A stretch of DNA of 39,269 nt from a virus, in IMG/VR virus record IMGVR_UViG_3300045988_084518; one strand, given 5' to 3'. The position numbers were made by a program, and so were the translations under genes. Positions 3,101 through 39,179 of the stretch are shown here, piece by piece (the first letter of the stretch is position 1; every line of letters starts with the position of its first letter). The notes beneath the pieces were generated by a model. The model did no database searches. It was not told the DNA's origin and saw nothing but the letters and a program-made list of their open reading frames with translations.

Positions 3101-6100
3101 ATTTCGGTCAGAACCTTGGCAACATCTTCCGTAGTGGTGGATTTCTGTTCCGCCGTCCTCAATCTGGCTTTGCTCTTTGCCCGATCCTCCCGCACCACTC
3201 GGTCAATGCGGTCCTGCGTCCTCCGCCGGTTGAATTCGTCCTTTGCTTCGGACAGCTTTTCGTTGTACTTGTCCCGCATCTGCCGATTGTTCGCACGGAG
3301 GTCGGCACGGTATTGCTTGGCAAGTGCATCATATTTCGCCATGAATTCTGCACGGGCCTTTGCTGCCTTCTCTCGCTCTTTAGCCGCTGCTATTTCGGTG
3401 ATGAGTTTCGTCTCTGCATCACGCCAGCGGTCATTCATCTTCGCTTCCGCAGTTGCCTGCTGGCGATAGTCAGCAAGCTGCTGACGGATGTTCTTCACCT
3501 CGGCTTGTGCAGCCTTCAGCTCATCGTTTGCTTTCTCGGTTGCTTCGGAAACAACCCTGTCGATGTCGGCCATGTACTGGGCATCTTCCATGAGGGAGTA
3601 GCGGATGTCTTTGCTTTCTGTCGGAGCGGTATTGTCAATGTTCTTAAATTGACTACTGCCAAACGCCACATACACGTTGGCATTATCATATTTGCCCTCT
3701 ACAATGTATCCGTCATAACCAAGCGTGTTTCGAGCCGCTTCAAGAACGGTTCCGGAACCTGCTCCGCCGTTTGCAATCTCCGCAAGGATTTCGCTATCAC
3801 TATCGCTATATTCCATAGCTGCCTTTACGGTAGCATCCAGCGCACGGTTATACCATGCTTTTGAAGGGTACCCAATACCGCCGGCAGGGTCGTAATTCAC
3901 AAGCACTTCATCACCGGTCGGGTCAACAGCCTGTAAAAGTTTTTTTACTTCTGCCCTTGTCAGCGTAATCTCGCTATCGCTCAACGGCTTTTTGATATCA
4001 AGATACCCCTCAAGGAGTTGTCCGCCGTCCTTTTGGTAGCCCTCTGCCACCGGCTTGTAGTCAGTGAAATAGAAACCTTGCCCCTCGGAGCTGCCATGCT
4101 GGGACATGAAATCGGGGGAAAACTCGGTAAACACCGCCGGACTGCCATGATATACAGGTTTCAACCTGCCCTCTGCGTCAACGACTTTGGAGCCGAAGAA
4201 ATACTCCCGCTGCCCCGCAGAAAGCTCTCTGCCGGTGCTGTCGGTCGTCGGCATTTCCATAAGGGAAAGCTTTTCCTGTGCATTTTTTGCACCGGTTTGC
4301 ATAGAATGGGTATTGACAACATCAGTGTCTTGTGGTACATTGATGGTGTCGAAGTCAACCGCTGTGTTCCGCTCGGGCAATTGGAGCCCGATTCGATGAA
4401 GCAGCCGGTTGGCTTCTTTTTTGCTGTAGCCAAGCAAATTTCCCCGGAGCATTTGATCTGCAAGAAAGTCCCTGCTGTTTTCTTTTCCATACAGACTTGC
4501 CACTCTTGTTACAATATCAAAGCCATTGCTCCGGCTCAAGTGAAGCGCCACAACAACAGGGTTTCCATCGGAATCCGCTGTAGAGGTAACGATGACTGCT
4601 GCATTGGGGACAGTGCCCGATTTCAACAGAAGCACCGGCTTGTCCAGCATTTCCGGAAGTTTCAGCAAAACATTATCGGAAAGGCTGTGCCCATGGGTGT
4701 CAATCGTAGACTTCCTTTGGGCCTTTTCTACTACAGCCTGCATCATTACAATAGGCTCTTTCTTCATGCCGGCTGCCTGCAGATATTCCGATGTGTCATT
4801 GAGATAAAACAAGTCTCCACGCTTAAACCGGCCGGCTTTGTAGTCGGCAAACTGTTCCGCAAACGGGCGGTTGTTTTTCTCCACCGCCTCCTTCATCAGC
4901 GAATAAGATATCTTCCCCGCTTCTTCCGCCTCCGTTCTCCCCTCCATCCCATCAAGCAAAGCCTTCTGCGATTCGGACAGCCTGTTGTAGGCTTCCTGCG
5001 CAGAGGGCTTTCCTTTTAGCTTTTTGAGGATACGGTTCAAAAAACCTTTAATGCCGGTGGCCGCTTCCGTATTTCTTGCGCCTATGTACTCCAGCATATC
5101 CCGGCTGCCCAAAAGATCACCGCTGATATCGGCAGCGACTTCCTCCGCAGCTGCATCCGGGTCAAGCTCAATTCCATTGCGCTCGTACAGTTCGGTTTTG
5201 GCATTCATCATGCCCTTTACCATATCGGCATAGTCGGGGTTCTCTACCAGCGTATCAATCATCCCGGAATACTTGCTATCAGCTACAAGGTCGTGAAACA
5301 TCTCATGCCCGAAAGTAACCATCAGCGGATCGCGGGAATTGATGTTGACATAAATGGTGCCATCCGGTGCGCGATAGCCATTGGTCAGTCGGTACTGCCC
5401 ATTGACCTGCACCGCGCCCTCAAACCACACGATAGTCTTGCCAAGGTATTTCGCTGCATTGTTCACCTCGGCAACAGCTTTCTTTTTACTGCCGAGAATT
5501 TCAGCTTTCTTATAGCCGATCTCGGTATTGCCGCGCACATCGGTATTGGTGATCTCCTTGATACGGCGCTTGCCGTCTACATCGGTAATGGTGTTTTGCT
5601 CAACGGAAAGCCAGCGTTCACGGCTTTCCTGCTCAAGTACATCGGCTTCCGCTTCCGCTTTGGCTTCTAGTTCGGCAGTCGCCCTTTCTGCCGCTTCGGT
5701 CATGCGCTCCGTGTACTCCGCTTCGGATACGACCTGTCTGCCGGTCTCGCCCAGCTTCTTGGTCGTTACCTCGATGGCAGCAACATCCGCAGCAGGGTTT
5801 CCTGTGTACTCGATCCCTGCCAGCTTCGCAAAGGACTCTCTCGCAGCAGGGTCGTTGTAAACCTTCTGCGCTACGCTTTGGTTTGCAGGAGCGCCTTGAA
5901 TTGCGCTGTTGTAGGCGACTTCACCTGTATTGGCAGGATTATCTACCATCTGCACGAAAGCTTGCCCTACGCTATCCTGCGCTGTTTTAACAGCAGATTC
6001 CTCCTGCTTACTGAAAACCTCGGCCATAACCGATTCGGGAGTGGGTTTTACCCCCAATGTTTCCGCAGCTTGGACGATGGCGTTGGCGTTGTTCATCATC

Positions 6101-7560
6101 GCCTTCAGCTCTCGAATGGAAAGCTGTGTGATATCCCCTTGGATTTTGGAGAGGCCGCTTTCCGCATCGAAGGACTGGTTTGCTTCGAAAAGTCTGCCGA
6201 GCATCTGGGGGGTGGGCTTCTTCTGCGCTTCCGCTGCATAGATGGCAGGGGCTGTGCCTTCACCCTTGCCCAAGCCTTCCTCTATCTGCTGCTGGACTGC
6301 AGCGGGGGATTTCTTAAGGGTCTTGCCCAAGCGGTTATAGTTGACGGCTCGTGTCGCTGCGTTTGCACCGCCCAAAACACCGCCTGCGAGAGCGCCGAGG
6401 AGCATATCGTACCAGATGTTGTCCATCTCGTCACTTTCGCCCGTGAGCGCTTTCTCGATGGCATAGTTAACGACATCTTCGGCACCTTCCTCCAAGCCTT
6501 CCTCAAGGGGGACGCGCAGCAATTCGCCGCCGGTAGAAGTAGCCAATGCATAAATACCGGGGGCTTCGGACATCAGCTTTTTGGTTGCGGCTTGCCCCAG
6601 CTTTGTGCCGCCGAGTCTTCCGAACACACCGCCGATCTGCTCTGTGGTGTATGTTGCGGCTCCTGCGCCAAGACCGAGTGCAAATGCGAGATCGCCGTTG
6701 CCGTACTTCTCGTATGCGTCTGCATACTTGTGGCCGAGGGAGGATACCGACATCAGCAAAAGACCTGCCGCTGGTGATTTGGTAATTGCGGTCACAGCCG
6801 CAGGGATCGCCATGCCTGCAAGCGTTCCGGCAGTATCAAGGCCGAGACCTTCGAGAGTGCCTACACTCGCCCTGTCCTTTTCCCGCTTCAGCTCGGCAAC
6901 AGTCTTGTAATCTGTTATCGGCGCAGCGTCTTTCTTGACCACCCCGGAAGCCTCAAGCGCCTCCTTCGGGGAAACGCCCTTGTCCATAAGGTTCTTTGCG
7001 CTGGTTGCGGCTTGCCGATATGCCGCTTCGCCATCGCCCAGGTAGTGAGAGAGAACCCCTGCGCCCTGCATGAACGACTGGCCAAAGTCCTGCAACGAGG
7101 CCAATGTAGCAGTACCGGCCTTAAACTTGTTTTTGCTTGGGTCGTAGTCCTCGGTCGCTTCGATGTTCTTCTGTGTCTTATACTTGGTTTCCGCATTGAC
7201 GGAGTCGGTGTAGATACGGCTTGCAATGCCGAGCTGCTCTGCTTCCTCCTGCTTCATCCCGGCACGATGGTATGCCCCGGCCTTGATAAGGGCATCGTCA
7301 CGCTGCTTCTTCAGCGTATCGACATTCTGTTTCATGGTTTCGCTCTGCTTACGAGAAGAAGCCCCGGCAGGCGCAGCCTGTGCAGGCTGCGTGCCGGGAG
7401 AAAGAACAGTATGCTTAATCTCCTGCGAGCGGTATGGGGCCATTAAGTTTTCCATGTCGCTTGCGGAAACCTTTTTCGGGGAGCTGCCATCGCTGCGTGC
7501 GGTATTGTTGGAGTTTCCGTACATTAGGCCCTGCATTTCTTCGGCTGTTACCTTCCCCAT
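187..7560 (-). CDS. Giant (2457 aa) multi-domain virion-type 'polyvalent' protein: hydrophobic Gly/Ala segments + HExxH metallopeptidase + MuF-C-like segment + ART-like segment + coiled coil + ~1000-aa C-terminal region
   Basis: The ORF is uninterrupted over 7.4 kb. Start placed at ATG 7560 (AAGGAGG 5 nt upstream); the track start at 7644 has no SD. TFGHEMFHD is encoded at about nt 5290-5316. VYHGS...GQGFYFT...GYDGYIVEG...VAFGSSQFKN is encoded at about nt 3630-4160. A K/R/E-rich coiled coil is encoded at about nt 3050-3560. Confidence 0.7.
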   Translation of the reverse strand: MGKVTAEEMQGLMYGNSNNTARSDGSSPKKVSASDMENLMAPYRSQEIKHTVLSPGTQPAQAAPAGASSRKQSETMKQNVDTLKKQRDDALIKAGAYHRAGMKQEEAEQLGIASRIYTDSVNAETKYKTQKNIEATEDYDPSKNKFKAGTATLASLQDFGQSFMQGAGVLSHYLGDGEAAYRQAATSAKNLMDKGVSPKEALEASGVVKKDAAPITDYKTVAELKREKDRASVGTLEGLGLDTAGTLAGMAIPAAVTAITKSPAAGLLLMSVSSLGHKYADAYEKYGNGDLAFALGLGAGAATYTTEQIGGVFGRLGGTKLGQAATKKLMSEAPGIYALATSTGGELLRVPLEEGLEEGAEDVVNYAIEKALTGESDEMDNIWYDMLLGALAGGVLGGANAATRAVNYNRLGKTLKKSPAAVQQQIEEGLGKGEGTAPAIYAAEAQKKPTPQMLGRLFEANQSFDAESGLSKIQGDITQLSIRELKAMMNNANAIVQAAETLGVKPTPESVMAEVFSKQEESAVKTAQDSVGQAFVQMVDNPANTGEVAYNSAIQGAPANQSVAQKVYNDPAARESFAKLAGIEYTGNPAADVAAIEVTTKKLGETGRQVVSEAEYTERMTEAAERATAELEAKAEAEADVLEQESRERWLSVEQNTITDVDGKRRIKEITNTDVRGNTEIGYKKAEILGSKKKAVAEVNNAAKYLGKTIVWFEGAVQVNGQYRLTNGYRAPDGTIYVNINSRDPLMVTFGHEMFHDLVADSKYSGMIDTLVENPDYADMVKGMMNAKTELYERNGIELDPDAAAEEVAADISGDLLGSRDMLEYIGARNTEAATGIKGFLNRILKKLKGKPSAQEAYNRLSESQKALLDGMEGRTEAEEAGKISYSLMKEAVEKNNRPFAEQFADYKAGRFKRGDLFYLNDTSEYLQAAGMKKEPIVMMQAVVEKAQRKSTIDTHGHSLSDNVLLKLPEMLDKPVLLLKSGTVPNAAVIVTSTADSDGNPVVVALHLSRSNGFDIVTRVASLYGKENSRDFLADQMLRGNLLGYSKKEANRLLHRIGLQLPERNTAVDFDTINVPQDTDVVNTHSMQTGAKNAQEKLSLMEMPTTDSTGRELSAGQREYFFGSKVVDAEGRLKPVYHGSPAVFTEFSPDFMSQHGSSEGQGFYFTDYKPVAEGYQKDGGQLLEGYLDIKKPLSDSEITLTRAEVKKLLQAVDPTGDEVLVNYDPAGGIGYPSKAWYNRALDATVKAAMEYSDSDSEILAEIANGGAGSGTVLEAARNTLGYDGYIVEGKYDNANVYVAFGSSQFKNIDNTAPTESKDIRYSLMEDAQYMADIDRVVSEATEKANDELKAAQAEVKNIRQQLADYRQQATAEAKMNDRWRDAETKLITEIAAAKEREKAAKARAEFMAKYDALAKQYRADLRANNRQMRDKYNEKLSEAKDEFNRRRTQDRIDRVVREDRAKSKARLRTAEQKSTTTEDVAKVLTEMPKKDKETFKAQVAKDWRTIKRQLVNTKDELERFGNEVGDSRIMYAANNVGQASAAAQYSIGGAGQYDLNGKKIGDKNLMQVFEPAKKAGLTDEFYTYLLHEHNVDRMSVREKAQRQLAELRAKLNREVNGFAEMTDENISTAAGKDTALTKAYTEAQIAAAKQYKRFQAWAEKQFDKPVFGSSVTADDSRAAAADLLDAHPEFEKWAKDVYAYLDGLMEVRKQGGLVSADMAQYMKELYPHYVPTYRDMPSTSGGYSNPNIVAVNSTIKSAKGGNQDIMPLIDSIARQTLQTFSAAKKNILGNMLYEDAMDTTRDISEYIQSVTEEGDLVDLDADSAENLKNTLRIWVDGKPVTLHMSEAMADGFRPIEQSNSFGMKALRSINSTFKKLVTQWNPVFIVRNFVRDAQSALYFTHYSNATFIKNYGKAVKEIATNGKYWQLYQAMGGKGTTYYDPKSGLSDRYHFKNGAVDKVAGGLNRVIDILSFANEAVEQYPRLAEFISTMEDTGDVQQALYNAADITTNFGRGGFAARKLNASLVPFFNPGMQGLSKNIRNVIDRRGWKEIGQLISRLLINGVAPGIIMGLLYDGLKEDDDYKELSNYIKDSNILIKIGDNKFIKVPMGREPSVITAFTNRMWRWLKGEPASSAFAGYPSFAIEQLAPNNPRTNNIFAGFDAMRTNKNWYGGDIVSSYMEEKPDYLQYDESTDAFSIWLGEITRHGKNGIEGLSPKKVNYLIDQYSGFIGDWLLPALSKKADVPAVVKAFVVDSVRQNRLGSDFYDALDEAKQVKETEFATAADDATYSYLYKQSKAASEITKQLKEIYNSGEKTRKEKMSEARDLLELRNEIYRKALLTVGTYEETAKSIGSADSDVVKREANRKAFGAEYALKTYNKDVGEKAAEYVAQGVTYDQYYAAYFAARGITGDKDGDGKTIQLSSSRKKKAAIDKAVPGASTKQKHLLYEALEVSEKVW

Positions 7561-7570
7561 TTTGCCCTCC

Positions 7571-8338
7571 TTATCCATAGCGGCGGTTCCAAATGTCGGC
7601 TGCCTGCTCACTCGTGTATCCGAGTTTTGCCATTGCCTGTGCAAATGCCCTAATGTCGCCCGTGTCGGTTACCTTTGTGCCGGTTATAGTCTTAACGCCG
7701 GGGGCTTTTGCAACCCCTGCGGAGTAACTGGCCTGTGCGTTCATCTTGCCGGTCTGCGGCTCACGGTTCGCATTCAGCATATCGAGGTAGGCACGGCTCA
7801 CAGCATCGGAGTAGTCGCTGTCACCTTCGGCAAGGCTGCGGTTGTAGCGGTTGTTCAGCTTGACATAGGATGTTTCTGCAAGGCCGCCGTTGATGCCCTC
7901 ACGGGCCAGCTGCCCGGGGAGGTTCTTTAGCGCCATCTCTTTGGCAATGTACGCCCTGCGTGCATTGTCCTCCCGCTGCTGGGCCGCCTGTTTCTGCTGG
8001 GCCTCATACATCTGCTGGTTGTATGCAAGGAGCTGGTCATAGGCAGCGGTCTGTGCATCGAGCTGGGCTTTCAGCGAAGCGAGGTAGCTGTTCCGTTCGC
8101 TTGCGTCTTGGTAGGAATACGGGGTCTCGGTCGTTCTTCCGAGAGACCCTGCTGCGGTTTCAAGGAGGTTGAGCCGAGAGCTGTCGTTTCGCCAGGAATT
8201 CGCCAGGTCTTTCCCAGACAATCCGAGTACGGTTCCTGCCCCGTGCGCCCGAATAGAATTCGATACACCTTCACCAACACGGGGGTTGGGCTTGCTTCCA
8301 CCGTCATTCACCATGTTCATGTTGCTTCTATTCGCCAT
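7571..8338 (-). CDS. Hypothetical late protein (255 aa), Gln/Ala-rich coiled-coil centre; possibly virion/ejection-associated
   Basis: ATG 8338 is preceded by AAGGAGGGG and lies 1 nt after the amidase stop. The gene sits between the lysis genes and the giant gene. No recognisable motif. Confidence 0.5.
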   Translation of the reverse strand: MANRSNMNMVNDGGSKPNPRVGEGVSNSIRAHGAGTVLGLSGKDLANSWRNDSSRLNLLETAAGSLGRTTETPYSYQDASERNSYLASLKAQLDAQTAAYDQLLAYNQQMYEAQQKQAAQQREDNARRAYIAKEMALKNLPGQLAREGINGGLAETSYVKLNNRYNRSLAEGDSDYSDAVSRAYLDMLNANREPQTGKMNAQASYSAGVAKAPGVKTITGTKVTDTGDIRAFAQAMAKLGYTSEQAADIWNRRYG

Positions 8339-9916: not shown

Positions 9917-11209
9917 TTAGTTCACCCCCATAATGTTAAGAGCATTGAGCACATCTCGTGTATAGTTCGTGCCGTCAAGAGATTTCCAACCACCAGTAGC
10001 TGTGTCGTAATAATAAGCATTTACCGCTTCGGCAATACCAGCATCATTTCCTATAAACGCATTATTTATGGCAATGTTTATCTGTGCGCTTTTATCATTC
10101 ACAATATCGATACCCGGTCTTGCATCGGAATAATACAAAGCAAGTGTATTCTTGGGCAAATGGAAGTTAAGAGTTAGCTTATATACATTGCTTGAATTAC
10201 CATCACACCCAACAAAGATAAAGCCATCGTCAACAGCACACATCGGCATTGTATAAAAATAGTTTGTAAAACTTCCGATTTGGGATCTGACATCAAACAC
10301 ACTTGTATCAGTTTTTGTATCAAAATCGTAAGAATGTAAATAGCCATCGGATAGAAGATAATACATCTTTTTGTCAAACACAACGCCAGAAGTCGCACCT
10401 ATTGTTTTTCCAATACTGACCTGTGTTCTCATTCTTTCAATCGGGTCAACAATCGAAAACCAATTGTTTGCTGTTGAACCAGATACATTGCTTAAAGAAG
10501 TAGAACCGCCAAAGATATACATCTTATTATTTATGGCACCTTGTGCAGCAAACACCTGTCCGGTGAAACCGTTTATTTTCCCAACGTTTACCACGGTGTT
10601 TGCAACAGTATCTGTTTTGTACAAATCTCCATCGTCGATTGGCGATGAACAATCAGTGCGTACAGAGTATACGTCTGTTCCGATTACTATGGAAACGAAC
10701 GAACCTCTTCCAACAGTTCCGAGATTCTTTACAAGAGTTTCTGTATCAAGGTCATAGCATAAAGCAAAACTTTGATTGTACCACGTTCCAGACACGCCAC
10801 CATAAGAATATAACTTGTTACCAACAATACACATTCCACATTGTGGGTACACGCTGGTAAATGCCGATGGGTTAGTAACCTGTTTAGAATTTAAGTTTAT
10901 CTTAAACGCTTTTCCTGATGGATAATTGTCGGTGGTTGTGCTACTTGAACCACCAGAGAGATACAGCGTATTCGTGCTTTTCCTCCACGCAAGAAGCGCA
11001 CCAACATTTCCAGTAGACGGAACAGAAATATTGAGGTTTTCAAACTCAAAACCGTATGTTAGGTCTTTTGCGCTGCATATAACCCTATCCGGCTTCTTCG
11101 CCAGTGGAACCCACAGCTTACTTGTATCTGTCGGAGGGGTAGAGCCGAAGTCTATGTTCAAATCAGCTCCACCGCCACCCAACGTAATAGGATTTCCTAA
11201 AATACTCAT
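9917..11209 (-). CDS. Kelch-type beta-propeller fibre / receptor-binding candidate, paralog 2 (430 aa)
   Basis: Start moved to ATG 11209 (MSILGNPITLGGGG, parallel to the paralog's MSVIYGNPIITNGGG). Recurrent hhhhGG blades (LYLSGG, LYSYGG, MYIFGG). N- and C-termini are shared with 11234-12544. Confidence 0.65.
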   Translation of the reverse strand: MSILGNPITLGGGGADLNIDFGSTPPTDTSKLWVPLAKKPDRVICSAKDLTYGFEFENLNISVPSTGNVGALLAWRKSTNTLYLSGGSSSTTTDNYPSGKAFKINLNSKQVTNPSAFTSVYPQCGMCIVGNKLYSYGGVSGTWYNQSFALCYDLDTETLVKNLGTVGRGSFVSIVIGTDVYSVRTDCSSPIDDGDLYKTDTVANTVVNVGKINGFTGQVFAAQGAINNKMYIFGGSTSLSNVSGSTANNWFSIVDPIERMRTQVSIGKTIGATSGVVFDKKMYYLLSDGYLHSYDFDTKTDTSVFDVRSQIGSFTNYFYTMPMCAVDDGFIFVGCDGNSSNVYKLTLNFHLPKNTLALYYSDARPGIDIVNDKSAQINIAINNAFIGNDAGIAEAVNAYYYDTATGGWKSLDGTNYTRDVLNALNIMGVN

Positions 11210-11233
11210 ATTCACCCTTTCCGGGGTGAGTAT

Positions 11234-12544
11234 TTAGTTCACCCCTAATATATTTAGTGCGTTCTGCATATCCGCTACATAGCTTTCACCAGTAAGCGAT
11301 TTCCACTTAAGGTCTTTGCTGTCGTAGAGATATGCGTTTGTTAATTGTGCTATGTTGTTGTTGTCCCCAAGGTAGGCGTTGATCACCTTAACCTTAAAGT
11401 CAGTATCTTTGGATTTAAGTGCTGTCCACAAGCCATCGTAACCATAGTCCTCTTGCAGGAACAGGTGGTTGCTGGTGAGGGGAGTGCTGACCGTAAATCG
11501 GTCAATATCAAGGCTATCGCTAAAACCAATTGAACCAGTTAGAAAAATATTATACCCATATAGCCACGTAATACAATATTTTCCCGATTTTGGTCTAACA
11601 GCATCAAGAGTAATGACTTGCTTACTCACAGTATCATAGCGATAGATGGTATTAAACACTGTTCCAGAAACGTTTCTACCACCGAAGATGTAGATATACT
11701 GACCAAAAGCAACTGCATTTGTGTCATACATCACTTGAGGAAGCGTTCCATCGTGAGTCCATGAATTCGAGGTTATATCATAACGATAAATAGCATTACT
11801 CTTTGTGTTACTATAACTGCCCCAATAACCACCAACAACATAGATTGCATTGCCAATACTGCACACGCCAAAGTTAATCATTCCTTGTGGCATATCAGCA
11901 AACTTGCCTGTTTTGTTTTTGGATACGTCAAAATACCTTACATCAGGCCAACAATTACCAGAATTGGCGTATCCCATGGAATAAATTATTGTCCCGTGTC
12001 CGATGATAGTTTGACCTGAATTGGCACTGTTATCCCCAAAACTTACCGATTGATTATAGTGGTAAGCCCTACTTGCTATATCAAAATAACATAGAGAAAA
12101 CACTGAAGTGCCCTGCCCACGAGCGTGCCCCCAGTAGTAAATTTTGTTGTCAATAACCGCCGCACCCCTTGCAACCAAGGCGTTTATACTATAATTGTTC
12201 GTATCCCCTCCATCACATACAATAGGACAGGTAATCGTTTCCCAAGCATTAGTTGCAGTGTCGTAGATTTGCATTTTCGAGTCCGGCGCAGGCACATAGA
12301 TTTTACCACTGTGGTATACAGACGAAGGGCTTGTGATAGCAGGAGTTGAAGGTCTCGTTTGAACTGCGGTTGTCATATATTCGCTACCAATTTGCAAAAT
12401 CGGACTACACTCAACAGCATCAGGCTTTGTTGCCAATGGCACCCAGAGTTTGGTGGTATCAGCGGGAGGATTTGCACCATAGTCTATGTTGAGTTTTACC
12501 CCCCCCCCGTTGGTAATAATTGGGTTACCGTAAATTACGCTCAT
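11234..12544 (-). CDS. Kelch-type beta-propeller fibre / receptor-binding candidate, paralog 1 (436 aa)
   Basis: Blade motifs KIYYWGH, IYVVGGY and IYIFGGR. ATGA overlap with the collagen-like fibre gene. C-terminus NAYLYDSKDLKWKSLTGESYVADMQNALNILGVN matches the paralog. Confidence 0.65.
   Translation of the reverse strand: MSVIYGNPIITNGGGVKLNIDYGANPPADTTKLWVPLATKPDAVECSPILQIGSEYMTTAVQTRPSTPAITSPSSVYHSGKIYVPAPDSKMQIYDTATNAWETITCPIVCDGGDTNNYSINALVARGAAVIDNKIYYWGHARGQGTSVFSLCYFDIASRAYHYNQSVSFGDNSANSGQTIIGHGTIIYSMGYANSGNCWPDVRYFDVSKNKTGKFADMPQGMINFGVCSIGNAIYVVGGYWGSYSNTKSNAIYRYDITSNSWTHDGTLPQVMYDTNAVAFGQYIYIFGGRNVSGTVFNTIYRYDTVSKQVITLDAVRPKSGKYCITWLYGYNIFLTGSIGFSDSLDIDRFTVSTPLTSNHLFLQEDYGYDGLWTALKSKDTDFKVKVINAYLGDNNNIAQLTNAYLYDSKDLKWKSLTGESYVADMQNALNILGVN
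12499..12508 (-). repeat. G10 homopolymer (C10 on the + strand) in codons 13-16 of Kelch paralog 1
   Basis: Read directly: ...ACC AAC GGG GGG GGG GTA AAA... It is the longest homopolymer I found in the window. The paralog encodes the same GGGG with the interrupted codons GGT GGC GGT GGA. Confidence 0.9.
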
Positions 12545-32716: not shown

Positions 32717-32986
32717 TTAATACGGTCGTATATCCTGTTCTGCTTCTTCGAAATACTTGTCTCCATCAAGGTACGCGTCAATCTTCTTGATCTCTCCCGT
32801 CTCGTACTCATCGAGGAGGTCACTGATGTGGTCGTCAATGCACTGGTCACAGGATACGATTTCATCGGTCAAACGGCGCACATAGATGTCTCCGTGAATT
32901 TCCGCTTTGCAGACAGGGCAGTACCGATGCACCCAGTCCATGTAGTCGTCCGGCCAGATGGCATCCGGCACATATATCGGGGTCAT
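32717..32986 (-). CDS. Small zinc-finger hypothetical protein (89 aa)
   Basis: Contains CPVC...CDQC. ATGA coupling to the upstream gene. Confidence 0.5.
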   Translation of the reverse strand: MTPIYVPDAIWPDDYMDWVHRYCPVCKAEIHGDIYVRRLTDEIVSCDQCIDDHISDLLDEYETGEIKKIDAYLDGDKYFEEAEQDIRPY

Positions 32987-33891
32987 GCCTCAATCACCTC
33001 TCCATCCACGAGCTTATAAAACACGCCGGGCTTTATGGTCTCTCCGTCCACCTTTACCGCTCGCACCTCTTTAATGGGGTAAGTATCACCGTTCCAGCCA
33101 CCCCTATCGGTTAGGACAAGCCAGCATCCAATGGCGCCGGATGCCTTACTATCAACTCCGGTGACGATTGCAATAGACTCCTTTCCATCAACAGTGGCTG
33201 CGCTACAGTTGCCGGTGTTGGTGGCTGTGCTCCACTTGCCGGTGTTGGTGGCTGCGCTACGGTAGCCGGTGTTTGTGGCTGCGCTCCACTTGCCGGTGTT
33301 GGTGGCTGCGCTCCACTTGCCGGTGTTGGTGGCTGCGCTACAGTAGCCGGTGTTTGTGGCTGCGCTCCACTTGCCGGTGTTGGTGGCTGCGCTCCACTTG
33401 CCGGTGTTGGTGGCTGCGCTACAGTCGCCGGTGTTTGTGGCTGCGCTACAGTCGCCGGTGTTTGTGGCTGCGCTACAGTTGCCGGTGTTGGTGGCTGCGC
33501 TACAGTTGCCGGTGTTGGTGGCTGCGCTACAGTTGCCGGTGTTGGTGGCTGCGCTACAGTAGCCGGTCTGATTGTCGCTGCTTTCGGCTCTTTCCTTTAT
33601 GTACTCAACCGCAGCTTTTGCAATACCAGCGATACCGATCTCCGCCCGGAGCTTTATTTTCGTTCCGGCTCGCTTGCTGTCGCCTTTTGCTTCGTCCGTC
33701 ACACCGTCAAGATCGGCCTCGAAAAACCGGCTATTTGCAGGGTTGTAATAAGAGAACACATCCAGCGGGTATTCACATCCATGGAAACCTTTATTGCATA
33801 GTTCCGCTTCCCCCTCCACATATTCTTTGCCAAGCTCGAATTGGAAGCCTCGGCATTTCATATCCTTATCGGTGCCTTTGTACACCAACAC
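32983..33891 (-). CDS. DUF7666-like protein with 14 tandem 9-aa xxSAATNTG repeats (302 aa)
   Basis: GTG start with AAAGGAGG 8 nt upstream. N-terminus MLVYKGTDKDMKCRGFQFELGKEY...GFHGCEYPLDVFSYY. Repeat block, then C-terminus ...WLVLTDRG...VDGETIKPGVFYKLVDGEVIE. Confidence 0.6.
   Translation of the reverse strand: MLVYKGTDKDMKCRGFQFELGKEYVEGEAELCNKGFHGCEYPLDVFSYYNPANSRFFEADLDGVTDEAKGDSKRAGTKIKLRAEIGIAGIAKAAVEYIKERAESSDNQTGYCSAATNTGNCSAATNTGNCSAATNTGNCSAATNTGDCSAATNTGDCSAATNTGKWSAATNTGKWSAATNTGYCSAATNTGKWSAATNTGKWSAATNTGYRSAATNTGKWSTATNTGNCSAATVDGKESIAIVTGVDSKASGAIGCWLVLTDRGGWNGDTYPIKEVRAVKVDGETIKPGVFYKLVDGEVIEA
33184..33561. repeat. 27-bp tandem repeat array, 14 units, in-frame coding repeats
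   Basis: Units GCTGCGCT(A/C)CA(G/C)T(T/A/C)GCCGGTGTT(G/T)GTG are contiguous, with no spacers between them. Confidence 0.9.
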
Positions 33892-34812: not shown

Positions 34813-34835
34813 TTGTTCCTCCTTTGTGGTATCCT
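34806..34835 (+). promoter_or_regulatory. Candidate plus-strand promoter antisense to the early operon (TTGGCA-18-TGgTATCCT)
   Basis: -35 at 34806-11, TGg at 34827-29 and -10 at 34830-35. It lies just upstream of the RBS/ATG at 34859. Confidence 0.35.
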
Positions 34836-34858
34836 CTCATTGGAGAGGAGGTGAGACG

Positions 34859-35071
34859 ATGAAAACCGTTTATGCAATCGATACGCCATGCTTGCGCGAT
34901 GCCGGTGCCGTTCGCAGATGCTACCTGTACAGCCTGTCCGATGGCGGCATTGACATCCTTGCATCTAATGGCTGCGAGGATTGCTCTGGGAGCCCTCTGT
35001 GTGCCGATTGCGGAATTCGGATTCGCAAGGCTTTTCAAGAGCATCCTGAACGCTTTTCGGAGGTGGTGTAG
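34859..35071 (+). CDS. Possible Cys-rich 70-aa protein encoded antisense within the early region
   Basis: GGAGAGGAGGTGAGACG-ATG. Translates to MKTVYAIDTPCLRD...CEDCSGSPLCADCG... It overlaps the 3' 107 nt of the minus-strand gene 34965-35234, so one of the two may be spurious. Confidence 0.4.
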   Translation: MKTVYAIDTPCLRDAGAVRRCYLYSLSDGGIDILASNGCEDCSGSPLCADCGIRIRKAFQEHPERFSEVV

Positions 35072-35234
35072 CGCCGTTCTGCTCCAACAGCGTAACTGCC
35101 ATGCCAAATGCCTTCGAGTACGGCAGCACACTTCCCTCCAGCTCCTTGGCTACGGTGTTCGCCGCACCGTGGTCGAGGAGTATTTTTGCGTGCCACAGAA
35201 CGAGGTGTGCGAGTTCGAGGTCTTCCTTATTCAT
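34965..35234 (-). CDS. Hypothetical early protein (89 aa), second gene of the cro operon
   Basis: ATG 35234 overlaps the cro stop (ATGAATAA), with GGAGGGAGGAG upstream. The first ~65 aa look helical; the tail looks unstructured. Confidence 0.5.
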   Translation of the reverse strand: MNKEDLELAHLVLWHAKILLDHGAANTVAKELEGSVLPYSKAFGMAVTLLEQNGATPPPKSVQDALEKPCESEFRNRHTEGSQSNPRSH

Positions 35235-35430: not shown

Positions 35431-35683
35431 CCAAACTGCCCTCCTTTCTTTAATTTTTTGTTGCAAAAGTTTACACAAAGTGATATCATGTTGTTGAGAG
35501 AAACATGAATATTCGGCATCCGTGATGCCCGCTTTGTGTTGCACTTGTTGCCCCATAACCACATTGTACAGTAAACAAACGCAACAATCAATAGAAAAGT
35601 GTTGCCTTCGTTTACTTTCTCCGTTTTGCACAAAAAGGTGGTGTTGCTTTTGTTCTACATTAACTATGTTGCGTTGTGCAACA
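35431..35683. promoter_or_regulatory. Genetic-switch region with 8 copies of TGTTGC/GCAACA and the palindrome GGCATC-CGT-GATGCC
   Basis: TGTTGC at 35459, 35537, 35546, 35600, 35642 and 35667; GCAACA at 35581 and 35678. The palindrome is at 35515-29. Candidate promoters are weak (for example TTGTTG-16-TACAGT at 35545-72 on the plus strand; TGaTATCAC on the minus strand). Confidence 0.55.
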
Positions 35684-35967
35684 AAATAGGCAAGTCCCCA
35701 TCTGCTGTTGCAGAAGAAATGGGGTTTATGCGCTCTGTTGTAACAAGATGGAGCAAGGGCTCCGTACCAAGGCAAGCAACCCTCCAAAAGGTCGCAGACT
35801 ATTTCGGCATCACCGTTGACGAGCTTTTGGGCAAAGAAAAACAGCCCACCGAAGGTGAGCTGTCCGGGATCCGGAAAGACCTTATGGATTTCGCAGATAC
35901 TTTGACAGATGAGAAAATTGAGAAATATCTTCGTCTAATGAAAACTTTAGAATCCGAAGATATTTAA
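35650..35967 (+). CDS. cI-like XRE-family repressor (about 105 aa), non-ATG start
   Basis: HTH KIGKSPSAVAEEMGFMRSVVTRWSKGSVPRQATLQKVADYFGITVDELLG. There is no in-frame ATG upstream of the HTH. TTG 35650 lies 8 nt after AAGGTGGTG; GTG 35638/35641 are alternatives. No S24 peptidase domain. Confidence 0.6.
   Translation: MFYINYVALCNKIGKSPSAVAEEMGFMRSVVTRWSKGSVPRQATLQKVADYFGITVDELLGKEKQPTEGELSGIRKDLMDFADTLTDEKIEKYLRLMKTLESEDI
35923..35965. other. AT-rich hairpin spanning the 3' end of the repressor gene
   Basis: 11-bp perfect arms AAATATCTTCG / CGAAGATATTT plus inner TCTAA/TTAGA pairing. Confidence 0.5.
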
Positions 35968-36068
35968 CAAGCTGCTCGTCAGACATCCGTTCCACCGCTT
36001 TTTTGAATTCCTCCTTTTTCTCCATTGGTGTTCCTCCTCTTTTGTCGATAATTGTCAAATAAAAATCC

Positions 36069-36097
36069 TTCCAAATTCAGCATGTATTTGGTACAAT
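36069..36097 (+). promoter_or_regulatory. Promoter of the accessory lysogeny genes (TTCCAA-17-TGgTACAAT)
   Basis: -35 at 36069-74, TGg at 36089-91 and -10 at 36092-97. Same TGGTACAAT element as the island promoter at 23672-80. Confidence 0.45.
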
Positions 36098-36130
36098 TCA
36101 ATTGTAACAAATTGCATGACCAATGTATAC

Positions 36131-36165
36131 TGACAAATGTTGCGGTTTGGGCGTCAAATTTGTCA
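36131..36165. promoter_or_regulatory. Inverted repeat TGACAAAT-N19-ATTTGTCA in the 5' leader of the HTH-TM gene
   Basis: 8-bp perfect arms at 36131-38 and 36158-65. A related ATTGTCAA lies at 36051-58. Confidence 0.4.
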
Positions 36166-36213
36166 TGCTTTACGGACAAAAGTGCCCGGTAACAAAAAAC
36201 AGGAGATGAGTTT

Positions 36214-36624
36214 GTGAATTTTGACGAAGATAAGAATTGGGAAAACTTTTTGCTGGAGGTAGCCACAAAACGGCAGGAGCAGGGAATGACCCACAAGGAT
36301 TTAGCCGACAATGCCGGAACGGTTGAGAGGACGATCTCCCGGCTGCTTTCGGAGCCGACCAAAAACCCAAGCCTTTTTCTCGTAGCTTCCGTCTGCCAAG
36401 CGCTGCACATATCTCTCGACAAGCATTTTGTTAAGGAAGTCTATAGCAAAGCCGACAGCCAGAGCAGCGAAGAAATGATAGAGGTGCTGAAAGAGCAGGT
36501 GCGCCAGCGCAGGAAGCTGTCCAAAACACTTTTTGCAGTTATTTTTGCCCTGCTGGCAATGATGATTTTATACCTCGTCCTAATCGATGCAAATAACCTT
36601 AACTATGGTTTAATTCGGGATTAA
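36214..36624 (+). CDS. Membrane-anchored XRE-type HTH protein (136 aa; N-terminal HTH, C-terminal TM)
   Basis: GTG start with AGGAG 8 nt upstream. HTH GMTHKDLADNAGTVERTISRLLS. C-terminal TM LFAVIFALLAMMILYLVLI. Confidence 0.65.
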   Translation: MNFDEDKNWENFLLEVATKRQEQGMTHKDLADNAGTVERTISRLLSEPTKNPSLFLVASVCQALHISLDKHFVKEVYSKADSQSSEEMIEVLKEQVRQRRKLSKTLFAVIFALLAMMILYLVLIDANNLNYGLIRD

Positions 36625-36641
36625 GAACAGATGTTCTTTCC
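36623..36641 (+). terminator. Weak hairpin/attenuator after the HTH-TM gene
   Basis: AAGAACA-GA-TGTTCTT followed by TCC. Short loop and poor U-tract. Confidence 0.3.
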
Positions 36642-36692
36642 AAATATAATCGTACCGAATTGGAAGTACAATAAAAAGGACTGATAGAACCG

Positions 36693-37073
36693 ATGAGGAA
36701 AATCGCTATATTTTTGCTTCTGCTTGTATTACTATCCATCCCGGCAGCAGCACACAGCGGCGGTACCGATAAGTATGGTGGCCACATCGATCACTCCACA
36801 GGCGAATATCACTACCACCACGGGTACCCCGCTCATCAGCACGATGGCGGTGTGTGCCCGTATAATTATGTCGATAAATCAGGCAGCACCAGCGGGAGCA
36901 GCGGGAGCGGTAAAGGCAGCGGAAGTGCTGTAAAGGCACCGCCGGCCAAAAAGCAAAGCAAGGACGAGCAAGACAGCGGGTTATCGACAGGCGTATTCGT
37001 AACGCTGTCTATTATAGGCGTGTTTGCGCTCGCCGGAGCGGTTGAGAAGCACATCGGCAAGGGGGACAAGTAA
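36693..37073 (+). CDS. Secreted, membrane-anchored YHYH-motif His-rich protein (126 aa)
   Basis: Signal-like N-terminus MRKIAIFLLLLVLLSIPAAA. HSGGTDKYGGHIDHSTGEYHYHHGYPAHQH. Ser/Gly linker. C-terminal TM GVFVTLSIIGVFALAGA. Confidence 0.65.
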   Translation: MRKIAIFLLLLVLLSIPAAAHSGGTDKYGGHIDHSTGEYHYHHGYPAHQHDGGVCPYNYVDKSGSTSGSSGSGKGSGSAVKAPPAKKQSKDEQDSGLSTGVFVTLSIIGVFALAGAVEKHIGKGDK

Positions 37074-37076
37074 AAT

Positions 37077-37100
37077 ACCGCCCCCGGCAACGAGGGCGGT
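37077..37100 (+). other. Hairpin between accessory genes
   Basis: ACCGCCC-N10-GGGCGGT. No U-tract follows. Confidence 0.35.
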
Positions 37101-37121
37101 TAATAACAGGAGGAGAAAACA

Positions 37122-38015
37122 ATGTTGGACAATGAAAAGCCAAGCGGAAACAATCAAGAGTATGAGAGAGGTTCTGTAGGGATTATAACAGCAAAGACTG
37201 TAAAGGGAAACTTGAAGTTGATTGGTCTTTCAATCGCTGGACTTGTCGTCATCTTTTGCATCGCAGCCTTTGTCGAAGTGAGTGGGATCGTATACGACAT
37301 GATGATAGGCGCAGCAGCAGGCTCCGGGATTTCAATTATCTATGCTGTTTGTAAAATCATCAGCATAACGGCAAAAAGCAAGGTAAAGTTTATCGCCGAC
37401 CTTGAAGAGAAGAAGGTGCAAAAGAACGAGCAGATGGAGAGGGAAGCAAAGGTAAAGGCGGTCGAAGATGCGAGACGGAAATTGCACGACTTGGTCGTGA
37501 TGCAAGGGAAACTAAAAAACTATTGTGAATCCGGCATAATAAGTGAAGCTGAAATGAAGAGTACGAGCGAAAAGCTCACGGTAGACATCGCAGAGGCAGA
37601 GGCCGAATTGAATGCCTTGGAGGAGAGAGTTGAGGAGAAACCACAGCATGTGGGGGAAATTCGAAAGGTAAAAGTCACGCCGATAAGAGTTTCTCCGGGA
37701 AAGTCAACAGATAAGAAAAACGCAACGGCAGAGAGCACAAAGAATAAAAAGAATATTCTAACATATTCGCTTGCCGCTTTGTGCCTTGCCCTCGGCATTT
37801 TGTGCGTTTATCAGGGAATACAGATAGCTGATCTCACGGGGAAGGCGCTCCCGTGGGAGACAAATAGAACTGTTCTCGTTACAGCGTATGGTTATGTGGA
37901 CAGCAGGTATCATAACGGGAATTGCGCCTTGAGCAAAAAGAATGTGATGAGAAAGATGTCGGAAAAGGAAGCCATATCGAGCGGGTATAAAAAGTGCCAC
38001 GCTTGCTTTGGTTGA
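37122..38015 (+). CDS. Three-TM coiled-coil membrane protein with a C-terminal His/Cys domain (297 aa)
   Basis: GGAGGAG RBS. TM helices at about aa 33-55, 60-82 and 213-235. A K/E coiled coil lies between them. C-terminus is YVDSRYHNGNC...SGYKKCHAC. Confidence 0.6.
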   Translation: MLDNEKPSGNNQEYERGSVGIITAKTVKGNLKLIGLSIAGLVVIFCIAAFVEVSGIVYDMMIGAAAGSGISIIYAVCKIISITAKSKVKFIADLEEKKVQKNEQMEREAKVKAVEDARRKLHDLVVMQGKLKNYCESGIISEAEMKSTSEKLTVDIAEAEAELNALEERVEEKPQHVGEIRKVKVTPIRVSPGKSTDKKNATAESTKNKKNILTYSLAALCLALGILCVYQGIQIADLTGKALPWETNRTVLVTAYGYVDSRYHNGNCALSKKNVMRKMSEKEAISSGYKKCHACFG

Positions 38016-38030
38016 TGGAGGCATACGAGG

Positions 38031-39179
38031 ATGCTCTGTAAGAAGTGCAAAAAGGAATTACAGGATGATTGGCTCTACTGCCCTTGGTGCGGTTTGAACG
38101 CAAAAAAGCCGCCAAAGCAGACGATGTACCGCAGGAAGGACGGCCTGTACGAGAAGAAGGTCACGATAGACGGCAAAAGAATAGCGTTTCGTGCCAAAAC
38201 GGAAAGGGAAGTAATCCAGAAAATCGCTGCATATTCAGCTGATGCAAAAAGTGAAACAACAGCTCTGTTCAAGAAGTATGCGGAAGACTTGGAACGGTCT
38301 TGGGACGAGCTTGCATATAACACCCTGCGAAGCTATAAGCCTGCGCTGAAAAGATGTGTCGATTACTTCGGGGATATGCCTGTCGGGGACATCACGCCGT
38401 ATAGCATCTCCCTGTTCCTCTCCAAGATGGCCACCACCTATTCGCAGAAGACGATAAAAAACCACTTGAGCATGATTTCGCAGACGCTCGATCTCGCAGT
38501 CATGAATAATGAGATCGCCACAAACCCCGCATCCATCAAGTATAAGCCGACCGGGAAGAAGCCGGTCAAGCGCAAGGAGGCCGCCGAGCAGTACGCCGAA
38601 GTCATCAGACAATACTGGGGCGAAAGCCTGTACTCATGGCTGGCGTACTTCCTACTGAACACTGGTCTGCGAAAAGGCGAGGCGCTGGCTCTCCAGTACA
38701 GGGACATCGATATGGAGGAAAACATCATCTCCGTTTCCAAGAGTGTGTACTTCATCAGCGATAACCCTTACATCAAGGAGCCGAAGACCTCCGCCGGGAT
38801 ACGGCTGGTTATCCTCCCGCTGTGCGTGAAGGAAAAGCTGAAGCCAGGCAAGCCGAATGATTATATCTTCTCCACGGGTGGGAAACCACTGCACGAGCAT
38901 CAGATCGATGCCGGATGGGATAGGTTCTGCAAGGCTCACGACATGGGCGAATGGATAAAAGGTGCAGGAGGAAAAAACCGATTCAAACCGGCGGTCACCT
39001 TCCACCAGCTCCGGCACTACTACGCCACCAAAGGCTCGGAACTTGGCATACCACGAGAAGTCATGACAGAGCTGATGGGGCATTCCTCTTATATCGTTAC
39101 GGAAAACTACACACATATTCGAAAGGCTGCGCTGCAATCCGCTGCGGAAAAAATCAATGGCACAGAAATGGCACAGTGA
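38031..39179 (+). CDS. int: Tyrosine recombinase / phage integrase with an N-terminal zinc ribbon
   Basis: CKKC...CPWC at the N-terminus. SAM-like core-binding region. Catalytic pattern LRKGEALAL (R), HQLRHYYAT (HxxR), GHSS (H) and ENYTH (Y). Adjacent to attR. Confidence 0.92.
   Translation: MLCKKCKKELQDDWLYCPWCGLNAKKPPKQTMYRRKDGLYEKKVTIDGKRIAFRAKTEREVIQKIAAYSADAKSETTALFKKYAEDLERSWDELAYNTLRSYKPALKRCVDYFGDMPVGDITPYSISLFLSKMATTYSQKTIKNHLSMISQTLDLAVMNNEIATNPASIKYKPTGKKPVKRKEAAEQYAEVIRQYWGESLYSWLAYFLLNTGLRKGEALALQYRDIDMEENIISVSKSVYFISDNPYIKEPKTSAGIRLVILPLCVKEKLKPGKPNDYIFSTGGKPLHEHQIDAGWDRFCKAHDMGEWIKGAGGKNRFKPAVTFHQLRHYYATKGSELGIPREVMTELMGHSSYIVTENYTHIRKAALQSAAEKINGTEMAQ
39157..39176 (+). repeat. 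Tandem ATGGCACAG-AA-ATGGCACAG, 11-bp period: putative integrase arm-type sites (right arm)
   Basis: Same 9-mer pair as 131-150. It lies in the last codons of int, 39 bp from the att repeat. Confidence 0.5.

Follow-up and report, generated by a model that had tools for sequence, protein, structure and literature searches.

Do the three plus-strand genes that lie between the repressor and integrase genes of the viral record IMGVR_UViG_3300045988_084518 form one functional unit, or do they share a site at which genes are exchanged? The stretch of DNA analyzed here, hereafter called the window, comprises 39,269 nucleotides (nt) and looks like a complete temperate phage genome. Its minus strand holds most of the open reading frames (ORFs); the three genes, named g1 (36214-36624), g2 (36693-37073) and g3 (37122-38015), belong to a lysogeny block on the plus strand (35599-39179). 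A first-pass annotation had located these ORFs correctly and had grouped them into a single envelope-level defence or signalling module, in which external metal-binding and Cys-containing domains would act as sensors, a coiled coil as transducer and g1 as the DNA-binding component. From a comparison with related loci, we arrive at a different organization: the interval probably consists of one backbone regulator (g1) followed by a two-part hypervariable cargo region, of which g2 and g3 are the present occupants, rather than of a three-gene system.

Conservation of g1 and variability of the downstream interval

A search with g1 as query retrieved 79 IMG/VR loci, and further loci were collected via g3 and its homologues. 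A set of 19 protein modules was placed on all loci by tblastn and, unless another number is given, tallies refer to the 83 loci in which g1 occurs together with a recombinase gene. g1 is present in all of them (83/83) with 87-96% identity. The repressor gene always lies about 250 nt upstream and occurs in four allele types (RepA-D) across 87 loci, next to a constant g1. The recombinase position is taken by IntA, IntB, IntC or a serine recombinase. A distant relative, L098, in which g1 is 65% identical, retains the order of repressor, g1, one cargo gene and integrase. What lies between g1 and the recombinase gene varies widely: at least 16 architectures occur among the 83 loci, with about a dozen unrelated small membrane-protein or lipoprotein cassettes. 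g2 is found in nine loci and the N-terminal half of g3 (module N1, described below) in 11, and most loci carry g1 without g2 or any g3 module. The exact architecture of the window is seen a single time; the identical g3 protein is encoded on five contigs in a larger protein collection. As g1 is present throughout and g2 and g3 are sporadic, g1 is a fixed backbone gene of the phage lineage and not cargo, and g2 and g3 are accessory cassettes. The prophage cargo slot to which the first-pass annotation had assigned the whole trio is therefore an apt description for g2 and g3, predicted envelope proteins in a slot of the lysogeny module, and does not apply to g1; nor are the three genes inherited together as had been supposed.

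The cassettes that occupy the interval in relatives are diverse. In 39 loci it measures about 670-1,000 nt and matches no mapped module; those inspected among these 39 encode either a 182-amino-acid (aa) protein with a single transmembrane (TM) segment (L010, L011) or a 316-aa protein with two TM segments (L014, L082). Another 15 loci carry a 183-aa lipoprotein, and other loci encode Cys-rich TM or lipobox proteins of about 100 aa (three types), a 174-aa multi-TM protein, or multi-TM proteins of 88 and 101 aa. In L061 (4613-5485) and in L092 and L093 (both 4276-5148), an abortive-infection gene of the AbiD/Abi_2 type is located directly upstream of the integrase gene (Pfam, E = 2.9e-52; PADLOC AbiD, E = 6.9e-98). 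Nearly all of the alternative cassettes encode TM or lipobox proteins.

These comparisons bear directly on the idea of one sensing and signalling module. The three genes are adjacent on the same strand and all of their products are predicted to be membrane-associated, as such a module would have it. Moreover, seven of the nine loci with g2 also carry N1 (p = 2.6e-6 per locus), and two related proteins, P0047 and P0048 (~60% identity; P0048 corresponds to L003 76-1242), fuse a YHYH domain, extra TM helices and N1 into one ORF in a divergent phage with a serine recombinase. This fusion and the frequent co-occurrence are a hint of a link between g2 and N1. However, the association loses significance if related loci are merged so that each distinct architecture counts once (p = 0.30), so that the co-occurrence cannot serve as proof of a functional link. 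In addition, g1 precedes at least 16 downstream architectures that mostly lack g2 and g3 modules, the exact trio is found in one locus out of 83, the two halves of g3 are exchanged independently, and a separate promoter and a boundary hairpin split the genes from one another. Considering both sides, we judge it highly improbable that g1, g2 and g3 act as a single module. A fixed regulator with a two-compartment slot would replace this speculative three-gene system by a defined architecture in an abundant, uncultured lineage of human-gut phages.

Regulatory elements and the division of the slot

The product of g1 (136 aa, GTG start) belongs to the XRE family, with a match to HTH_3 (PF01381) of 30.4 bits over residues 18-69 against a gathering cutoff of 23. 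A single strongly hydrophobic segment (residues 106-124) near its C-terminus confirms the earlier description of a helix-turn-helix (HTH) protein with a C-terminal TM helix. It is followed by a 12-aa external tail (IDAxNLxYGLIR), which is kept in homologues at 56-65% identity. Membrane-bound one-component regulators include BcrR of Enterococcus, an XRE HTH protein with four TM helices, and proteins of the ToxR/CadC types. Similarly, in g1 a cytoplasmic DNA-binding domain at the N-terminus is connected directly to a membrane anchor. Unlike BcrR, it has a single TM helix and just 12 external residues, and unlike all of these regulators it is phage-encoded and situated between a repressor gene and cargo.

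The 170 nt upstream of g1 are nearly unchanged among the aligned relatives, whichever repressor allele is present. They include the extended -10 element TGgTACAAT (36089-36097) that had been pointed out before; it is invariant in 11 of 12 aligned relatives, and its -10 hexamer in all 12. This element is part of a 27-base-pair (bp) palindrome (36086-36112; ATTTGGTACAATT-c-AATTGTAACAAAT), the arms of which are 92% complementary and correspond to two face-to-face extended -10 boxes (TGnTACAAT), one per strand. The palindrome is identical in 11 of the 12 aligned relatives regardless of repressor type, L082 differing at five positions, and a promoter scan also lists a minus-strand promoter-like site (36129-36101). 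The arrangement is that expected of overlapping divergent promoters, which would serve g1 on the plus strand and a small ORF on the minus strand.

The leader between this palindrome and g1 contains the inverted repeat noted in the first pass, TGACAAAT-N19-ATTTGTCA (36131-36165). No such repeat arose in any of 100 shuffled sequences; of its 8-nt arms, relatives keep only the core (TGACA...TGTCA). The repeat falls within three plus-strand operator-like repeats of approximately TGACAAAnnTGnCCGG (36131-36186), which stand out more clearly in L098 through the perfect palindrome GACAAATTTGTC; the motif shows no enrichment elsewhere in the window. Folding of the leader RNA is no better than that of shuffled sequence (z = -0.31). 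An RNA hairpin was rejected on this ground, and operator-like repeats in the DNA are preferred. As different repressor alleles go with unchanged sites, these sites are most likely bound by a factor that is itself invariant, for which g1 is the prime candidate. Most likely, g1 would act as a membrane-tethered DNA-binding protein that regulates the local divergent promoter pair, including its own promoter.

The small ORF on the minus strand (36025 to 35882; 47 aa) is convergent with the 3' end of the repressor gene (35599-35967, plus strand), which encodes an immunity-type XRE repressor of 122 aa and of the RepA allele with matches to HTH_3 and HTH_26. The small ORF is open in 87 of 87 g1-bearing loci, in which it occurs as three allelic types, with a fourth type in L098, and its strong GGAGG ribosome-binding site and ATG codon are invariant in aligned relatives. 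All types have the motif xxELxxAIxxM[ST][PD]EQ in common, and their overlap with the repressor gene, at its 3' end, amounts to 71-86 nt. Because its sequence (M[ST][PD]EQ) resembles the C-terminal tails of the repressors, this candidate gene may encode an antagonist, or antirepressor, that mimics the repressor tail, as the resemblance suggests; alternatively, it may be an antisense regulator. No match to Pfam or to the PDB was found for it. An analogy to SinI/SinR was considered as well and dropped, as no chain of SinI or SinR was among the PDB matches of a profile built from the small ORFs and the repressor tails, and SinI was not matched in Pfam.

Transcription of the cargo appears to be under separate control. 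A promoter-like site (TTAAGA-18-TATAAT; 36621-36650, plus strand) immediately follows the stop codon of g1 and is kept whichever cassette comes next, including in L098. The cargo thus has a conserved promoter-like site of its own, independent of the promoter and leader of g1, which speaks against the proposal that the trio is expressed from one promoter. A palindrome, AGAACAGATGTTCT (36624-36637), overlaps the -35 hexamer and the spacer of this site. Its inner part, GAAC-N4-GTTC (36625-36636), matches exactly the consensus of the LexA operator, or Cheo box, of Bacillus and Clostridium (PMC4234289), a consensus that may not be that of the host. Two exact matches are observed in the window where 0.57 are expected. 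Of 87 loci, 86 retain both arms (GAAC and GTTC), around a 4-nt spacer that reads AGAT, AGTT, AGAG or AAAT, and constant arms with a variable spacer form the pattern expected of a protein-binding site. A 5' stem-loop downstream of the cargo promoter was also considered and abandoned (z = 0.02 in the variant of the window).

With a LexA box on the conserved cargo promoter, cargo and integrase are predicted to be under SOS control rather than simply constitutive in the lysogen, which puts in question the earlier notion of a lysogen-expressed unit. The tyrosine integrase gene (38031-39179, plus strand; IntA type, PF00589) starts 15 nt 3' of g3 and is probably co-transcribed with the cargo. We infer that both are transcribed from a LexA-repressed promoter. 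This promoter would drive the resident cassettes and the integrase gene at a low level in the resting lysogen and at an increased level in the SOS response. As in LexA-controlled prophage functions with Bacillus/Clostridium Cheo boxes, the exact consensus overlaps the promoter, with constant arms and a free spacer (PMC4234289). In contrast to these functions, the box precedes cargo and integrase and not a repressor, antirepressor or DNA-repair gene.

A second conserved element lies between g2 and g3, where a GC-rich hairpin (37077-37100, plus strand) has a folding energy of -17.5 kcal/mol (z = -3.06) and is also listed by a terminator scan. Of the 98 loci fetched, 83 contain a single copy of this hairpin and L004 contains two. 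Its position is always 3' of the first group of cassettes, and the hairpin is followed either directly by the integrase gene or by g3-type genes. From this position it follows that the cargo is split into two sub-slots, with g2 in the first and g3 in the second. Sub-slot 1 extends from the cargo promoter to the hairpin and sub-slot 2 from the hairpin to the integrase gene. Related phages exchange these cassettes, with recombination presumably taking place in the conserved sequences of the promoter and the hairpin at either side, and module exchange reaches into g3 itself.

Domain composition of g2 and g3

The cassette of sub-slot 1, g2, encodes a 126-aa protein with a signal-like N-terminal segment, a His-rich domain (H21...Y57), a Ser/Gly linker and a C-terminal TM anchor. 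The first-pass annotation had described it as a secreted, anchored protein with a YHYH-type His cluster, and this is borne out by the hydrophobic segments at both ends and by membership in the NCBIfam family YHYH_alt (NF033223; 41.1 bits over residues 18-42, curated cutoff 30), with which g2 shares the conserved His/Asp pattern. No Pfam family matches at E <= 0.1, YHYH (PF14240) included. Homologues of g2 are numerous, with 733 detectable proteins of 93-217 aa. In an alignment of 88 sequences, H21, G23, D26, G29, G30, G37, Y39, H40, H42, H43, G44, A47, H48, H50 and Y57 are invariant, and H31 and C55 are nearly so. H21 follows the A-x-A end of the signal peptide, and the mature N-terminus is therefore predicted to be a His. 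An N-terminal His is typical of the copper sites known as histidine braces. Homologues differ in how they are tethered: g2 has a TM anchor, the protein of Fusobacterium phage JD-Fnp2 carries a PG_binding domain and that of Acetoanaerobium phage ANDSL2_ph1 a repeat domain. Direct sequence searches of the PDB returned nothing for g2, and AlphaFold yielded a low-confidence beta-hairpin (predicted local distance difference test score, pLDDT, 62), for which Foldseek found no meaningful PDB match.

On other phage backbones, nine places were sampled, and in all of them the YHYH gene likewise belongs to or adjoins the repressor/recombinase module, sharing the strand of repressor and recombinase (JD-Fnp2, ANDSL2_ph1, L094/L099, L096, L097, L100 and L101). 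YHYH_alt, a family with hundreds of members, thereby stands out as cargo that recurs in the lysogeny modules of unrelated temperate phages, namely phages of Clostridia and Fusobacterium.

YHYH domains have been predicted to be metal-dependent hydrolases associated with phage tails (Iyer et al., 2021; PMC7824862). Unlike the domain described there, g2 is stand-alone, membrane-anchored and encoded in the lysogeny module, without fusion to a tail protein. The prediction nonetheless raises the possibility that g2 hydrolyses or remodels the cell wall in a metal-dependent manner and that g3 is a membrane scaffold, both serving the induction of the phage itself, for instance in the timing of lysis or in preventing re-adsorption to debris. 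The peptidoglycan-binding domain of the JD-Fnp2 homologue would suit such a role, as would the predicted SOS control, by which cargo and integrase would be co-expressed at induction. Yet g2 matches YHYH_alt and not PF14240, its conserved domain of about 40 residues is small for an enzyme, and the genes are dispensable in most relatives. We regard a role of this kind as very unlikely.

The cassette of sub-slot 2, g3, encodes a 297-aa protein with hydrophobic segments at about residues 33-51, 62-82 and 212-235, in agreement with the three TM helices proposed before. At its C-terminal end (...RYHNGNC...KCHACFG), the spacing is YH-x3-C...C-x2-C and not YH-x4-C as first given. A comparison with homologues shows that g3 is a chimera of exchangeable modules: either of two N-terminal modules (N1 or N2) is combined with either of two C-terminal domains (C1 or C2). 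N1 (37122-37646) consists of two TM helices and a charged helical, coiled-coil-like cytoplasmic segment, and is also present as a free-standing 174-aa gene in relatives. N2, in turn, comprises about 150 aa with several TM helices. The two C-terminal modules (37647-38015 in g3) each begin with a Lys-rich linker and a TM helix, the third of g3, which are followed by the Cys/His domain C1, as in the window, or by C2, an external helical, coiled-coil domain of about 100 aa. Searches of g3 against Pfam, PHROG and NCBIfam gave spurious low-complexity or coiled-coil matches only, and g3 has no match among GenBank phages.

C1 (residues 240-297; 37839-38012) was also searched on its own. A direct sequence search of the PDB found nothing. 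An exhaustive phmmer search of 1.8 billion representative proteins returned eight matches only, four of which are remote (P0101 and P0103-P0105; E = 7e-5 to 7e-4). These four proteins contain tandem 'YH..C....C..C' units, in three cases behind lipoprotein-like N-termini, and reach the Pfam family Ada_Zn_binding (PF02805). An alignment of C1 with the tandem units by hhalign gave a probability of 95.8% (E = 6.7e-9), and a profile of the units ranked the four PDB entries of the Ada N-terminal domain first (E ~0.02). In the AlphaFold model of C1 (pLDDT 74), the top Foldseek match is again an Ada N-terminal domain (1wpk), at a non-significant E = 1 and a TM-score of 0.46. As in the N-terminal Zn(Cys)4 domain of E. 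coli Ada (PF02805), there are four ligands in the same order and a C-terminal 'EA..GY..C..C' signature; in contrast to Ada, the first ligand is a His and the domain is predicted to be extracytoplasmic, on a TM helix. To judge from these similarities, C1 is a putative diverged, extracytoplasmic H-C-C-C version of the Ada zinc domain. A role in the repair of DNA methyl-phosphotriesters is implausible outside the cell.

Possible functions and phage context

Ltp is a surface lipoprotein that is encoded by a lysogeny-module gene and blocks DNA injection (PMC3952083). g2 and g3 occupy the same location as Sie/Ltp genes, as membrane-anchored products encoded in the lysogeny module between repressor and integrase. 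Like the Ltp/Sie2009-type genes of Firmicutes temperate phages, the cargo lies on the strand of the repressor and integrase genes, specifies small proteins anchored at the outer face and varies among relatives (PMC3952083). Unlike those genes, to which they have no sequence similarity, g2 and g3 carry YHYH_alt and Ada-like H-C-C-C domains and have a LexA box on their promoter. With prophage moron and defence hotspots such as those with AbiD/AbiF cargo, the slot shares a fixed site between conserved genes, its own promoter-like element, a bounding hairpin and a variable content, but most of its cassettes encode small envelope proteins and not cytoplasmic defence enzymes, and shuffling proceeds down to single domains in g3. 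The commonest cassette (TM182, found in relatives of the phage and unrelated to g2 and g3) has a weak resemblance to the PHROG 'superinfection exclusion' family phrog_4980 (E = 6.6e-6).

In view of the Ltp-like position, the AbiD gene in the slot of relatives and this weak resemblance, our best guess is that g2 and g3 serve envelope-level exclusion or receptor masking. On the outer face of the membrane, g2 would present its His-rich metal-binding domain and g3 its Ada-like zinc domain, and there they could block adsorption or DNA entry of other phages or mask the receptor around induction. Under the predicted SOS control, g2 and g3 would exert this activity at or after induction and not in the resting lysogen. 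If control by LexA is true, DNA damage co-induces envelope cargo and integrase, a timing unlike that of classical lysogen-expressed exclusion.

Several observations weigh against parts of the organization and function proposed here. The hairpin that bounds the sub-slots has no U-tract on the plus strand, and it may be a terminator or attenuator, an RNA stabiliser or a recombination anchor. The LexA box is called from a 12-bp motif and its conservation, with a consensus that is not necessarily the host's, and if repression by LexA is tight, exclusion of the classical lysogen-expressed type becomes less likely. The Ada-like assignment of C1 is transitive, since g3 itself has no PF02805 match at E <= 0.1 and the Foldseek match has E = 1. 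Finally, neither g2 nor g3 matches any family in PADLOC-DB 2.0 at E <= 1 or a PHROG superinfection exclusion family, and g1 has generic HTH matches only in PADLOC-DB 2.0. The absence of a named defence system in the first-pass annotation is thus upheld by the PADLOC comparison of g2 and g3, the slot itself being defence-like through the AbiD genes of relatives.

Alternatively, g2, with or without g3, could benefit the host as a factor of lysogenic conversion, e.g., by the capture, buffering or detoxification of copper or zinc at the cell surface. Seven invariant or nearly invariant His residues, an Asp and a Cys within about 40 residues, with H21 predicted as the first mature residue, would fit such a function. 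So would the different means by which homologues are tethered to the surface (TM anchor, PG_binding domain or repeat domain), and C1 and the Cys-rich cassettes are likewise of metal-binding types. On the other hand, g2 is not accompanied by genes for metal transport or resistance, SOS-linked expression would be unusual for a nutritional function, and a recurrent lysogeny-module site with an AbiD neighbour in some relatives is more typical of genes engaged in conflict between phages. A contribution to host fitness is hence unlikely.

Lysogeny modules are well known to contain variable slots for exclusion, moron or defence genes. New at the level of variants are the two-compartment slot with a conserved LexA-box promoter and the domain shuffling within g3, the recurrence of YHYH_alt as lysogeny-module cargo across unrelated phages, and the pairing of an invariant XRE protein, tethered to the membrane, with neighbouring divergent promoters that overlap and a small convergent ORF. 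With at least 12 small envelope-protein cassettes and AbiD, the slot represents a natural library for exclusion and defence screening. A more far-reaching idea, which we consider quite unlikely, is that YHYH_alt proteins with an N-terminal His are widespread prophage surface metalloproteins that act at the envelope in conflicts of phages with one another or with the host, SOS-induced here together with the integrase. Linked to it, g1, the divergent promoters and the tail-mimicking ORF would form a second, membrane-coupled switch that feeds envelope signals into the lysis-lysogeny decision.

The host of the phage is inferred to belong to the Firmicutes, more specifically the Clostridia, from its ribosome-binding sites and Cheo box as well as from the hosts of those phages that carry homologues. 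Among GenBank phages, g1 has matches in uncultured faecal contigs only. The sole GTDB genome match for the phage is L010 (NZ_JAHXLB010000019.1), a 23.6-kb contig labelled Helicobacter pylori SHZY19. Its lysogeny module is the same as in human-gut viral contigs, and the contig is therefore likely a contamination of that assembly.

Regarding composition, the trio had been described as clearly richer in AT than the phage backbone. The region indeed has a lower GC content than the whole window (46.3% vs. 51.8%), but 8.7% of equal-sized windows are equally low or lower and g2, with 54.1%, lies above the window mean, so that this claim is a weak one. The lowest-GC stretch of the window (36-45% GC) is found at 9917-12544 on the minus strand. 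It encodes two neighbouring beta-propeller proteins with Kelch repeats (432 and 436 aa), which may function in receptor binding or as tail fibres.

Judged by the gene order of relatives, the window of about 39 kb appears to be a complete, circularly permuted phage genome. Across its ends, the integrase gene is adjoined by an ORF of 2485 aa (187-7644, minus strand). In L003, L004 and L006, the ORF downstream of the integrase gene on the opposite strand is annotated with MuF_C and ART-PolyVal. A DUF7666 protein (32983-33891, minus strand) contains about 13 tandem 9-aa units of the 'CSAATNTG[NDKY]' type; the relatives L001 and L002 have few copies of this unit, the copy number of which is thus variable. 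Compared to the same two relatives, the window has about 400 extra bases at 34813-35226, between a Cro-like and a Xis-like gene. This insert holds an ORF beginning with MNKEDLELAHL... and represents a second small variable site, located in the early region.

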